NCBI GenBank assembly: GCA_964016885.1
Contig: OZ024744.1
Span: 136,435,334 to 136,499,333, forward strand
From: Eledone cirrhosa
Lineage: Eukaryota
DNA length: 64,000 nt
Reading direction: 5' to 3'
The position numbers and the translations under genes were made by a program. Each line of letters starts with the position of its first letter. The first letter of the stretch is position 1. Shown here in pieces: positions 23,981 through 59,264 of the stretch. A model generated the notes under the pieces. The model had not been told where the DNA came from. It was given only the letters and a program-made list of their open reading frames with translations, and made no database searches.

Positions 23981-25017
23981 CCAGATAGAAAAATGCGTAC
24001 AGCAAAAAAAAGTAATATCGTTGGAATATAAACCTTTAAAAATACAGGACAAGAAACTAAAATAAAACTTTAAAAGAATAGGACAAGAAACTAAGATAAA
24101 ACATTAAAGAATTGGACAAGAAATAAAAAATTTTACAATAATATTAGTGGCAAAATTTTTATTGGTAAAAAATCGAGTTCCACATTCAGAGGGCGTCGTC
24201 AGACCGGAGGGATCATTTGATCCTGGTTTGAACACCAATTGGGCCATAACCATACCCCTAGTTTATCAATCGGCGACACGCCTCATGTGTCATGCATAAT
24301 GTGAATGGACCCATGGGCCCATGAGCACAGATCTTGAGCAGCAGCGGACGGTCTTGTCGTCCCGCTCATCCTTGATCTTGACCAACCCGTCCATCTTCTC
24401 CTTGCATCTTGTCCTTGAGTTCAAGTCCGGCAGTCCAGATGAATGCGTGCCACAGCTTTCTGGTACAGGAAGGGGGAGCAGGAGGACTGGAGGGATGACG
24501 GGACAGAGGGAGGGAGGACCGGTGGTTGAGGGAGGTGCCGTAGTCGGTGGTCAGAGTCGACATCTTGTCCTGGTCGTCTTCTCCATCTTCGTCTGGTGTT
24601 GCGGGACCAGAAGTGCATTCTTGGAGGAGACCTGCAGCTGCATCGGCCAATTCTTCTTGCAATGGTCATTCTGACAGAGCAGAACTGCTCAACCAACCAA
24701 CCCCAACCAGAACCAACCGCTCAGGGGCAACGCACAATGAGAGCATGACAATTATTATGCACTAATCAAGAAGATACTGGGGCATAGCACAGGAAACGAA
24801 TAAAAAAATTTTGCCACTAATATTAATGTAAAATTTTTTATTTCTTGTCCAATTCTTTAAAGTTTTATCTTAGTTTCTTGTCCTATTCTTTTAAAGTTTT
24901 ATCTTAGTTTCTTGTCCTATTCTTTTAAAGTTTTATTTTAGTTTCTTGTCCTGTATTTTTAAAGGTTTATATTCCAACAATATTACTTTTTTTTGCTGTA
25001 CGCATCTTTCTATCTGG
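23981..25017. repeat. 3'-terminal foldback of Helitron A1: inverted arms ~23981-24163 and ~24798-25017 with ~33-bp subrepeats and a GC-rich spacer
   Basis: CCAGATAGAAAAATGCGTACAGC... is mirrored by ...GCTGTACGCATCTTTCTATCTGG. The right arm has one extra ~33-bp subunit. Confidence 0.93.
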
Positions 25018-25288
25018 TCTACTATTTTTTAAGGCAATGCAAGCAACAACTATCTAATAATTAAATGATCATAGTGAATTACTGACAAGTGATTGACATT
25101 TTAAAGTTCTTTTGAGTATAATTGCAATCTAGTTGAGGCAACTGGCTTAATGACAAAGCTAGTAAATCTTGAATGCATTTGAGATGATTAGTGCATAATA
25201 GTGAATTGGTGAAACTTGTGCATTTCAATTGTGTTACAATAGATGTAAGTTATATAGTAGTAATACTTTATCATTTTAACTTTTTAGA

Positions 25289-25648
25289 ATGGACAAAAAC
25301 CCATGCAAAGAAATGACTTTGACTGCAGTGATTCTCTCCAATTTACTTACAAAGCAAAACGTGGTCAAATACCTTATCATCTCTGATAAAATGCCCATTG
25401 AATCACTGAAAATCGGATGCATGGAATTCCTCATAAAATACACCTATGAATCGGAAGCCATCACATATATCAATGGATATAGGGAGTTGTTCACACTGGA
25501 AGACCATCACTTCATTTGTGACTTCATCAGTTATCTCCACGATTATCTCAGACACACAATGCCATTGATGAGAGGTGATCCAATGTGTGAGCATGTAACT
25601 AATCTTATAGAAGTTGTTATCGACCACCTGGCTTTTAGTGACATTTGA
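25289..25648 (+). CDS. 119-aa ORF/exon with BACK-like (BTB-associated) helical motif
   Basis: ILSNLLTKQNVVKYLIISDKMPIESLKIGCMEFL resembles the SPOP/BACK pattern L..NL..EN...L..AD....LK..C..FI. It is preceded by a pyrimidine tract and AG (25286-25287). Confidence 0.4.
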   Translation: MDKNPCKEMTLTAVILSNLLTKQNVVKYLIISDKMPIESLKIGCMEFLIKYTYESEAITYINGYRELFTLEDHHFICDFISYLHDYLRHTMPLMRGDPMCEHVTNLIEVVIDHLAFSDI

Positions 25649-54642: not shown

Positions 54643-57600
54643 ATATATATATATATATATATATATATATATATATATAAATATAAGTAATTAATACCGT
54701 ATAAATGGTACAAAGACTGTTTATGTAAAATGTATTTCTCAACAGAGCATTGAATACTTAGGAGAAATTCAAAACGAAGAGTGATAAAATTTTCAAGCAA
54801 AGAGTTTAATTAGGTAATGACTTACAAATTTGTTTCAGTATATAGACAAAGCCTGAAGCGTTAATTATAATAATTAGTTAATAATATTACAAAATATACC
54901 TAATTAAACTCTTTGCTTGAAATTTTATCATTCTTCGTTTATATATATATATATATATATATATATATATATATATATAGAGAGAGAGAGAGAGAGAGAG
55001 AGAGAGAGAGAGAGAGAGAGATTTATCTAGTCCTTCGCTCAAGATTAATCTATAAGTTTAGATGTTTGCCTTCGTTTAAGTAAATATTACAGTAAGATTT
55101 TTAATATAAACAACTACAAAAAACAATTAATATTAAAACGAAAAAATTATCAATGATAAAAGAAGCGGATGCAACTTTTTTTTTTATAAAGTTATATTCC
55201 TGTTTCTTTAAAGAACATTTCATTTTTGTTCTATTGTAGGCGAAATAATGCAATGGTTTAATAGGGAAGATATAACTTACGAATTATGTCTCTAACCGTG
55301 TAACGCTTTTTAAGTAGATAACTACAATTGAAAATACTAAAGAAATGGAACCAACAATTCAATTTGAAAGTCGTCTAGTGACAGTGTATTACTGGTACTT
55401 TATTTTATCGACCCCGTAACGATGAAAGGCAAAAATGCAAATGCTTAAAATTTAAATTGCCTTAATTCTATCGTCTGCTGTTTCATTAAAGGGAGATTCT
55501 CGTCTGTATTTAATTCTATCGTCTACTGTTCCACTAAACAGATATACCTCCACTATCGTCTCTATTTATACATTTTAACTTATAACTTATACACATTTGA
55601 TTTGAAATATTTTATCTAGTCCCCCCTCTCAATATTATGATGATTTCTTTCGAATGAAACAGTTCTAGTCCTGTAGAAGCCATTTATATATATAATTGAA
55701 CTGAGTTAAAAATTCACAATATTTATAATTAAATAAGCTCATATATATATGTGTGTATTTATCTGTTTATTGTATTATATATAATGTGTGTATATACAGG
55801 ATGTCCCCCAAAAATATATACACACTTCAACAGCATTCTAATAACTATTGCCTGTACAGGTAATCAAAGTGTCAATCGAATGTTAGTTTCGTGTTTTAAC
55901 AGTACAAATTTACAATACACACATAACACCAGTGTATATACATACATGAGTGTGTATACACATACATGAATGTGTATATACAATATATATGTATATATAT
56001 ATATATAGACACATATATTCACGGTGCAACGGTACATTAAAATATAGATGCGGGAGAGGGGGGGTGTATATATAGGGGCGCTGGGGATAAAGGAGTGTAA
56101 AGCGTGTGTAATTGATATATTGAAGGAGAGGAGCGTGCAGCGACAGAGTAACAAATATATAGAGAGGGGGAGAGATGGTATTGAAGGGGAGGAGTGCAAA
56201 GCGAAAGAGTAAGAGATATAAATAGAGACGGAACAGATAGAGAGAAACAGGCGTAAGTAACAGTGGAAGAGATATAGAGAGAGGTACTCTGATTGGTTGA
56301 AAATTAGCCAATGACATACGATCACCACCACGGCTATCCCCGAAAATTTTTTAGATAAGCTAGGCATATATGTTAGAACACGAAAAGTGAACATTCTGTT
56401 GTTTCACACTTTTCGTGTTCTAACAGATGAGCTTATTTAATTATAAATATTGTGAATTTTTAACTCAGTTCAATTATATATATAAATGGCTTCTACAGGA
56501 CTAGAACTGTTTCATTCGAAAGAAATCATCATAATATTGAGAGGGGGGACTAGATAAAATATTTCAAATCAAATGTGTATAAGTTATAAGTTAAAATGTA
56601 TAAATAGAGACGATAGTGGAGGTATATCTGTTTAGTGGAACAGTAGACGATAGAATTAAATACAGACGAGAATCTCCCTTTAATGAAACAGCAGACGATA
56701 GAATTAAGGCAATTTAAATTTTAAGCATTTGCATTTTTGCCTTTCATCGTTACGGGGTCGATAAAATAAAGTACCAGTAATACACTGTCACTAGACGACT
56801 TTCAAATTGAATTGTTGGTTCCATTTCTTTAGTATTTTCAATTGTAGTTATCTACTTAAAAAGCGTTACACGGTTAGAGACATAATTCGTAAGTTATATC
56901 TTCCCTATTAAACCATTGCATTATTTCGCCTACAATAGAACAAAAATGAAATGTTCTTTAAAGAAACAGGAATATAACTTTATAAAAAAAAAAGTTGCAT
57001 CCGCTTCTTTTATCATTGATAATTTTTTCGTTTTAATATTAATTGTTTTTTGTAGTTGTTTATATTAAAAATCTTACTGTAATATTTACTTAAACGAAGG
57101 CAAACATCTAAACTTATAGATTAATCTTGAGCGAAGGACTAGATAAATCTCTCTCCCTCTCTCTCTCTCTATATATATATATATATATATAAACGAAGAA
57201 TGATAAAATTTCAAGCAAAGAGTTTAATTAGGTATATTTTGTAATATTATTAACTAATTATTATAATTAACGCGCATATTTTGCTATCCTCAAACACGTT
57301 TACACATGGCATGAAATATAACTAATCCGAGATGGCTAGGTTTCATCTTCTAACTGGATATACGAAATCCATTATGTCTTGACAACAACATGAGGTAACA
57401 TTATGTTATTCACAGACACACTTTGTACACTGTTCCATATCAGAATGTATTTCCTTCGTCACATTCACAAACAGTATTGAAAATATGTTCTTCGGCAAAT
57501 AAAAATGTTTTGTTCATAATATTTCAACTAGCGATTGCTCTACTCCACGCACGACCACCATAAATTAATGACCAGCTCAACACAAGTATTGGTAGAGCGT

Positions 57601-59264
57601 CAGACACCATGCTTTGCAGTATTGTTATGGTCCTTTGCATTCTAAGTTCAAATCCTGCCGAGGTTAACTTCGACTTTCATACTTACTAATTCGATAAAAT
57701 AAAGTACCAGTAATGGACTGCCGTAATGGATTTGTGCCGAAAAATAGAAACACTATTAATGTGCAATAAGAGCAAAATATAACGACATTGCTCAATTATT
57801 TTATCTAATGTTGTAATAACACAAGGAAATGTTGTTTGTGTATTTTTTTTTATATTTGCTCATAGGCTTTTACAATTTCGCTCAGCCAACAACTATTAAA
57901 AAGTGAGTTGCTTAAGATAACAATTTAATCACAAATTGTTGCTATCTTTTAATACACTCCAACAAGTCATCAAATTATGTACAATAAAAACAAATCTTAT
58001 TAATTTGCTCAGGGAATATAAAGAAAATGTATATACACTGATAATTGCAAATGTATGTAAATATTTTGTTTTTGTATTGTATATTTTATGTTTTCTATTA
58101 TGTATAATATATTGATTTAATATTGATTGTTTTTTGTAGTTGTTTATATTAAAAGTCTGAAAATATTTTTATACATCTTACACTAATATTTATAAGATAA
58201 TTTATAATAACAATTACATAATCTAATTACATTACAACGATAATTTATTATTAATATATATCCTGTTTAACTAGAGTTATTACAAGCGTTGCCTTAAAAA
58301 AATATTAAACTAGACATGAAAAATGCGCAAGCTCAAAAGTGCCACAGAATGTTATAATAAACCTTCAAAAGTGTGGGACTAGAGTTGTTGCTAAAAAATA
58401 TTGTAATCATTATATATCGTACATTCTGTGGCATCCTTTATAAAAATAGCTTAAACCAACGAAGCCTTTATTTTTACGCTATTTCACTTAGTTAATTCTT
58501 AGAGTGTAACATATAAAACTAAATACATCTATGTTTAATGTAATAACAGCTATAAATAATTACGTAATATTATTATCATATACTCATAGTAACAAAATAA
58601 TTGTGTTGAAACTTAATATGATGCTTATATGAACGATCAAATCTATAATGATAATTTCTTAAATATACTAATAGTAAAATAATTTAGTTATCTATTGTTA
58701 CATTTTCATAGAACTATAATATTAACAATCGTATTGCATTATCAAATTTTTATCACTACAAACTTTCATATTGGAATTACCTTAAGCCACTTATTATTAC
58801 TTCGCTTTCGTACTTTTACAGCTGTAGATATTGCGCTGTATCTTATATCTAATATCAATATCTCATGGTAATTTGCATGAAGTGTAAAATAGGTTTATTA
58901 ATAACTTTAATATGAAATGTATTATACAGGGCTGCGGAGTCGGTCAAAAATTGACTGGCTCCAACTCAGGATCCGATACTCCATTATTTCCTAAATTTCA
59001 GCTCCGCAGCTCTGTTATTATATTAATTAATTTATTTTATAGTTGTAAATCATATTTTTATATGTTACACTCTAAGAATTAACTAAGTGAAATAGCGTAA
59101 AAATAAAGGCTTCGTTGGTTTAAGCTATTTTTATAAAGGATGCCACAGAATGTACGATATATAATGATTACAATATTTTTTAGCAACAACTCTAGTCCCA
59201 CACTTTTGAAGGTTTATTATAACATTCTGTGGCACTTTTGAGCTTGCGCATTTTTCATGTCTAG

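Follow-up and report, generated by a model that had tools for sequence, protein, structure and literature searches.

An HLE2-type rolling-circle transposon lineage with Helitron1-like ends and a giant 3' terminal foldback in Eledone cirrhosa

In a 64,000-nt stretch of Eledone cirrhosa contig OZ024744.1 (genome 3.0 Gb), referred to here as the window, five transposable elements of families A (A1 and A2) and B (B1, B2 and B3) are clustered with a family C element, which serves as a control. These A and B elements, and the related family E found elsewhere in the genome, are young rolling-circle transposons with near-identical copies in the genome. Judged from the domains and motifs of their Rep/helicase transposase (RepHel), they form an HLE2 lineage (the Helitron2/Helentron clade) with Helitron1-like termini, TC...CTRG at an A|T target. 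The feature for which no published description was found is a giant terminal foldback; the combination of 3' CTAG, A|T target, 5' stem-loop and short inverted repeats is already known in the proto-Helentron. The lineage comprises the three families A, B and E, with five subfamilies.

All five A and B elements of the window have A|TC...CTRG|T ends, with CTGG in A1 and CTAG in the other four. As seen by self-comparison and direct reading, the last four bases of each element close an inverted repeat of 175–213 bp around a loop of 530–740 nt, and the foldback runs from CYAG on its inner side to CTRG on its outer side in every case. A hairpin begins at nucleotide 3 of the 5' end, with 9–10 bp in A and 19 or more bp in B. 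An earlier sequence-only reading of the window had described A|TC...CTRR|T ends without target-site duplication, a 175–215-bp inverted repeat ending in CTRR with a 530–760-nt loop, and a hairpin right at the 5' TC, and all of this was recovered. Target duplication is absent at the empty sites of A2, B2, B3 and C, while no empty site for A1 or B1 was found among the loci examined. The B1 foldback is predicted to fold with an energy of −293.7 kcal/mol; relative to 20 shuffled sequences, z = −33. Meanwhile, the last 60 nt of the A and B elements fold at −1.4 to −2.5 kcal/mol, versus −5.7 kcal/mol for family C, and a strong short hairpin is present only in C, which agrees with its proposed role as a canonical control. 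The foldback occupies the place of the missing short 3' hairpin. In addition, a subterminal inverted repeat of 10–13 nt lies 25–29 nt from the 5' end and, inverted, 31–35 nt from the 3' end; the two copies match over 10–13 nt within a family and over just 5–7 nt across families, each family having its own repeat sequence, and in window A1 the repeat it is reduced to 8 nt by a point change. The earlier view that short subterminal inverted repeats are confined to Helentrons is contradicted by their presence in A and B.

Genome-wide, the shared arm-end motif gives 1696/1646 matches and its reversed control none, so that about 1,700 elements or foldbacks is a lower bound. For B, the arm end gives 684/669 matches and the 5' end 332/308; for A, the values are 456/429 and 207/192, respectively, and all reversed controls give 0. 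On contig C1 (0–186.8 Mb), a B TC end faces the foldback within 15 kb for 47 of 54 B foldback clusters (chance 0.004 each), and 48 of 50 B TC ends are paired with a foldback. The position before TC is A in 60/60 A and B 5' ends and in 15/15 E ends, and T follows CTRG in 48/49 distinct 3' flanks. The co-occurrence of the two ends and the insertion at A|T, both put forward for genome-wide checking, therefore hold beyond the window. TA|TA flanks are preferred and not obligatory (T at −2 in 48/60, A at +2 in 39/49). The 5' TC was present at all ends examined, the search patterns themselves starting with TC. Among 15 family E copies, all start with A|TC, 11 have both arms and 10 end in CTAG|T; two have the inner arm alone, and two have no arm within 7 kb. 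At one locus (L213/L054, C1:74.306 Mb), a B-family 5' end starts two bases past the CTGG with which an A1 element ends. The genome also contains foldback repeats unrelated in sequence to these families, at L184 (C2, ~86.761 Mb), L189 (C1389, ~46.5–47.5 kb), L185 and L168, with arms of 137–268 bp and (TA)n on one side; one such family has an identical inner flank at two loci and so is one-sided too.

Full-length autonomous copies were obtained from a protein search of the genome and 20 fetched loci. Full-length B is about 12.85 kb long with a single intact RepHel open reading frame (ORF) of 2,224 aa, and two copies are 99.8% identical over their whole length. An A2 copy of 11.2 kb has one stop. 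Two further groups also end in foldbacks of their own: B', whose DNA is 90% identical to that of B, and E, whose protein is about 66% identical to that of A. RepHel DNA between subfamilies has diverged to 64–68%. The homology of A and B RepHel, asserted earlier from the window, rests on these intact copies, because the window fragments share only about 77 aa. The 2,224-aa ORF contains, in order, DUF6570, Helitron_like_N (E 1.9e-28), PIF1 (E 3.9e-24) and a C-terminal UCH domain, and the HUH, Y-x3-K and Walker motifs are present. DUF6570 was detected with E-values of 2.2e-17 in B and 9.2e-18 in A2 and is absent from one same-genome control scanned. No AP (apurinic/apyrimidinic) endonuclease, the strict Helentron mark, was found in this ORF. 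It has been reported that Rep motif 2 contains G-S-P in Helentrons and G-L-P in Helitrons (PMC4067079); here the core is neither but G-A-P, as also in the proteins P0121, P0001 and P0006, and it is preceded by an HLE2-like F-W-R. In HELIANO, DUF6570 is described as an HLE2 marker, and UCH is reported in HLE2 subgroups c and d (PMC11417382). On the strength of DUF6570, UCH, F-W-R before Rep motif 2 and the subterminal inverted repeats, the transposase is assigned to HLE2 and not to a group outside HLE1 and HLE2.

Phylogenetic trees (FastTree) were built with database homologues and same-genome controls, without named Repbase or HELIANO references, and the three control proteins were called HLE1 from motif and Pfam evidence and not from a reference set. 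A, B, B' and E are monophyletic with support 1.0 in the helicase tree, which contains 152 sequences; in a tree of 38 sequences, they are nested among DUF6570 proteins and separated by a long branch from the three controls. The endonuclease-bearing P0155 branches outside this clade. The claim of a distinct rolling-circle lineage is therefore upheld as to monophyly, while its protein is HLE2, so the lineage is neither a variant of canonical Helitrons nor set apart from Helentrons. The closest proteins in other organisms are 40–44% identical. HLE2 proteins with UCH occur, among other hosts, in Nasonia, Linepithema, Rhodnius and Dysidea, and, according to HELIANO, in axolotl. P0121, which is among the closest RepHel-UCH relatives, carries the label of a protein from a Gammaproteobacteria metagenome-assembled genome (7.2-kb contig) and is probably eukaryotic contamination. 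Element ends or long inverted repeats were found in none of the 16 metagenome or genome contigs examined (of 161 relative loci fetched). A first viral scan gave no match; 80 viral loci match the helicase part alone, from residue 604 on. A DNA search with the arm sequence returned no candidates. Family B sequence is present in 20 public runs with 17 organism labels, 7 of which hold at least half of the B words, and there are no RNA runs among the listed runs. In runs X3 and X6, compared over window positions 31736–31871, arm depth is 15–30 times body depth, and although contig depth is not copy number, this suggests many more arm-bearing relatives in the organisms concerned.

The closest known elements, likened by description, are the oomycete proto-Helentron and the Fusarium HLE2-reverse elements. 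The proto-Helentron of Phytophthora infestans shares with A, B and E an HLE2 RepHel with DUF6570 and without endonuclease, a 3' CTAG, the A|T target without duplication, a 5' stem-loop and inverted repeats of about 12 nt; it differs in having 5' TT instead of TC, a left repeat that lies 3.6 kb inside and not next to the hairpin, and SET and TIR instead of UCH, and no long foldback is described in the passages cited (PMC4067079, PMC11417382). The A|T target departs from the T|T typical of HLE2, the proto-Helentron being a known exception; HELIANO reports nothing like the proto-Helentron in 404 genomes (PMC11417382). Similarly, FoHeli3-5 (HLE2-reverse) of Fusarium oxysporum have multiple 5' termini and lack a short 3' hairpin, and their 5' hairpin precedes the left repeat, but their ends are TGCCT...CTCCTGT instead of TC...CTRG, and the relevant sections describe no giant foldback (PMC5148889, PMC11417382). 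Helitron2 and Helentron/DINE-1 resemble the present elements in their asymmetric terminal inverted repeats (ATIRs) of 8–15 nt, in the terminal hairpin formed by pairing with a nearby partner and in reversed ORFs, whereas they insert at TT or TTTT|T/C, the partner of the hairpin is short and only 3–22 bp away, and Helentrons encode an AP endonuclease (PMC3627910, PMC4067079). Helitron1/Helraiser has TC...CTRR ends and an A|T target without duplication, but also a 16–20-nt hairpin about 11 nt from its 3' end, and, as far as the cited text goes, neither subterminal repeats nor DUF6570, with a transposase of a separate clade (PMC4778049, PMC5876387). HELIANO HLE2 subgroups c and d, compared by description only, are likewise enriched in UCH and carry DUF6570 (PMC11417382). 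As for the earlier suggestion that the whole architecture is undescribed, it stands for the giant foldback and falls for the 5' stem-loop, the 3' CTAG and the A|T target, which the proto-Helentron already has. No description of a giant terminal foldback was found in the literature, with Repbase, Dfam and subscription papers outside the scope of the search; PMC12001565 gave no match for it, and the new class presented in PMC13085455 is, from the part consulted, a different one. There is some chance, though a low one, that the layout is already recorded in Repbase or Dfam.

By analogy with studied Helitrons, we consider it fairly probable that the 3' foldback, in which the last 140–210 bp of the element recur in inverted form, acts as the terminator for rolling-circle copying and the TC end as the origin. 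It has been reported for Helraiser that the left end is essential, that cleavage falls on the plus strand, at TC and behind CTAG, and that the 3' hairpin acts as a terminator which can be bypassed (PMC4778049, PMC5876387). On this model, RepHel would nick at A|TC, peel the sense strand from 5' to 3' and go past the inner CYAG; the arms would zip on the peeled strand and pause RepHel, a cut would follow after the outer CTRG, and the circle would close and then insert at A|T, for the most part where the DNA is rich in TA. By comparison with Helitron2, the subterminal repeats may pair and so bring both ends together. Finally, occasional outer-to-inner copy-back template switches in second-strand synthesis may have built the foldback and may keep its arms alike. 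The polarity is addressed by A2 composites in which a single foldback is combined with two TC ends; one junction type occurs at 3 loci and the other at 4, mostly with different outer flanks. Such composites were copied whole through the inner TC-hairpin, which favours the TC end as origin and the foldback as terminator. Meanwhile, termination at the inner CTAG was seen in none of 9 inner-CTAG variants.

The arms are 95–100% alike within an element and 56–64% alike between families (one copy per family). In four comparisons, the columns that are family-specific in both arms numbered 4, 14, 51 and 52, and no column tracked arm position. Since family differences sit in both arms and never follow arm position, the arms must have been homogenised repeatedly. 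Among the 7 short B' copies, 6 carry the outer 270 nt in inverted form where the inner arm and most of the loop would otherwise lie. The long loop of B' is also present in B and is therefore ancestral, and the replacement is the footprint expected if a nascent antisense strand had folded back on itself, that is, of outer-to-inner copy-back. The loop has a fixed orientation in 25/25 A1 copies, 6/6 A2 copies and the 12/12 E copies in which it could be matched (4 of the 35 inputs had been set aside, as the patterns did not match them). Flip-flop of the kind known as parvovirus-like terminal resolution was rejected, as the loop never flips.

Several observations weigh against the foldback as a copy-back-maintained terminator. 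The double-TC loci were partly chosen for showing two matches. No circle or head-to-tail junction for B was found in the genome, and no joined ends were listed in two read-run comparisons, in which contigs drop rare forms and one was swamped by a short interspersed nuclear element (SINE). At one locus, L083, both ends are present but the inner arm is missing, with a junction that is single in the genome. B' loops range in length from less than 20 nt to about 740 nt. Of the private variants in 56 copies, 39 lie in a single arm and 1 in both, and A1 arms often differ in the number of 34-bp units; homogenisation is therefore occasional, and the private variants lend no support to arm conversion in every cycle. 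Furthermore, the DNA that HUH nucleases cut is single-stranded (PMC5876387), and CTRG would be buried once the stem had zipped completely; as a fully paired CTRG would be a poor HUH substrate, cleavage would need to precede complete zipping.

Some of the same observations could be read otherwise. The foldback might be a tolerated by-product of ancestral copy-back, renewed by like accidents, with the last 45 nt (the subterminal repeat, the conserved GCATTTTTC and CTRG) sufficing for termination. Copy-back events are indeed seen in B', the loop length varies freely, unrelated one-sided foldback repeats exist in the same genome, and L083 does have both ends without an inner arm. We nevertheless hold this to be unlikely: all five subfamilies retain two arms in exact CYAG-to-CTRG register despite the divergence of their RepHel DNA, the single-arm junction occurs only once, and the arm ends are exact on both sides in 46 of the 54 B clusters.

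The polarity could also be the reverse. The antisense strand can be read as a Helitron2 blueprint with a reversed ORF, in which the foldback end, as an inflated 5' hairpin, would be the origin, and the small hairpin on the TC side, which directly follows the subterminal repeat, the terminator. In the published description of Helitron2, the 5' ATIR pairs downstream, the 3' ATIR lies just upstream of the hairpin and some ORFs are reversed (PMC3627910), and A, E and B' match this order on the antisense strand. However, the whole-copied composites at 7 loci would then require repeated bypass of the first terminator, none of the 54 B clusters has more than two arm ends, and TC and CTRG on the ORF strand are the ends that Helraiser cuts. 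Such a reversal appears distinctly improbable. Lastly, an independent terminal inverted repeat (TIR) element at a Helitron end, of the miniature inverted-repeat or Foldback type with TA or CTAG target duplication, is hardly credible: the unit alone does have terminal inverted repeats and its flanks are often TA|TA, but one flank is constant element sequence in 16/16 B loci, the unit is linked to the TC end, the A1 ends CCAG/CTGG are inverted and not direct, and a TA or CTAG duplication was rejected at the empty sites. Among the loci examined, the dispersed foldbacks with target duplications that would have spoken for it were not found.

The positions of the elements and their parts in the window are collected in Table 1.

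Table 1. Foldback elements, the family C control and associated features in the 64,000-nt window
Feature	Position	Strand	Remarks
Element A1	23981–42476	−	Broken autonomous-type copy; hosts nested A2, B1 and C; 97.7% to other A1 copy over 42088–38375
A1 3' foldback	23981–25017	−	CCAG...CTGG then T; arms 175–210 bp (34-bp unit number differs), loop ~630 nt
A1 5' end	42440–42476	−	TC, 9–10-bp hairpin, then subterminal inverted repeat
A1 RepHel remnant	37773–42088	−	Helitron_like_N, PIF1, UvrD_C, UCH; ORF split by frameshifts and stops; N-terminus deleted
Element A2	26837–31406	−	Non-autonomous; tandem TC ends at 31406 and 30206 with (TA)n between; empty site found
A2 3' foldback	26837–27951	−	Arms ~190 bp, loop ~737 nt
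Element B1	31738–35514	−	Non-autonomous; SINE-like insert 34126–34327
B1 3' foldback	31738–32692	−	Arms 212–213 bp, loop 531 nt
B1 5' end	35456–35514	−	TC and 19+-bp hairpin; subterminal repeat inside hairpin loop
Family C	35553–36429	−	Canonical control of Helitron1 type; a short hairpin precedes the 3' CTAG; 5' hairpin absent; empty site found
Element B3	49001–59264	+	Split by B2; duplication of the first 210 nt gives a second TC at 49211; empty site is a neighbouring 74-bp repeat
Element B2	49894–56427	−	Internal-deletion derivative of autonomous B; in B3 at A|T, opposite orientation; 46 empty-site matches among loci examined
B2 3' foldback	49894–50848	−	B-type arms 212–213 bp, loop 531 nt
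B2 RepHel N-terminal remnant	51222–53741	−	Contains DUF6570
B3 3' foldback	58310–59264	+	Ends CTAG then T; arms 212–213 bp, loop 531 nt
Acceptor-like motif	25018–25045, 25700–25730, 27952–27980, 32693–32720	+	Resembles splice acceptor

The acceptor-like motif (T-rich, then AAGGCA) lies on the antisense strand beside the inner arm and is conserved in A, B and E, in which no conserved exon was found upstream of it. A conserved loop gene was not found either, as there was no cross-family tblastx match beyond the arms and no Pfam match above the cut-off. The A2 loop contains a 205-aa frame with a Cys/His pattern (27102–27719, −), presumably resembling a PHD finger, and a 122-aa frame (25280–25648, +) runs antisense to A1, with a copy of the acceptor-like motif on either side; neither frame has a Pfam match above the cut-off. 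Between the B2 5' region and the B2 ORF, (TA)n and a fragment of a long interspersed nuclear element (LINE), which we take to be RTE-like, occupy 53806–54640. A broken LINE with an RVT_1 reverse transcriptase domain (43040–48594) sits within a 72-bp tandem array, and the transposon cluster is flanked by an 80-bp satellite with strong G skew (1–23980) and a C-skewed minisatellite (60640–64000).

Taken as a whole, the arrangement may represent a third Helitron terminal architecture, in which an HLE2 transposase works on TC/CTRG ends, a 140–210-bp duplex on the peeled strand serves as terminator and copy-back rebuilds it during transposition; this is offered tentatively, with the balance somewhat on the side of doubt. 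If true, the lineage would be an animal counterpart of an HLE1–HLE2 intermediate, and the 99.8%-identical intact B copies would be a ready substrate for reconstituting HLE2 transposition. The mechanistic work cited here concerns the HLE1 element Helraiser (PMC4778049, PMC5876387), and the role of subterminal repeats is, in the cited description, still a hypothesis (PMC3627910). Because it combines intact, very young autonomous copies with sharp, testable ends, the present lineage can be dissected experimentally with regard to polarity, subterminal pairing and terminator. Since HELIANO seeks TIRs of 11–18 nt for HLE2 and a stem-loop for HLE1, annotation tools would likely place the ends of A, B and E wrongly. 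The roughly 1,700 long inverted repeats probably give rise to hairpin RNA and to rearrangement in the host genome. The lineage carries the proto-Helentron type of end beyond oomycetes into an animal, a point relevant to the question of an ancestral or a convergent origin of TC/CTRR ends.

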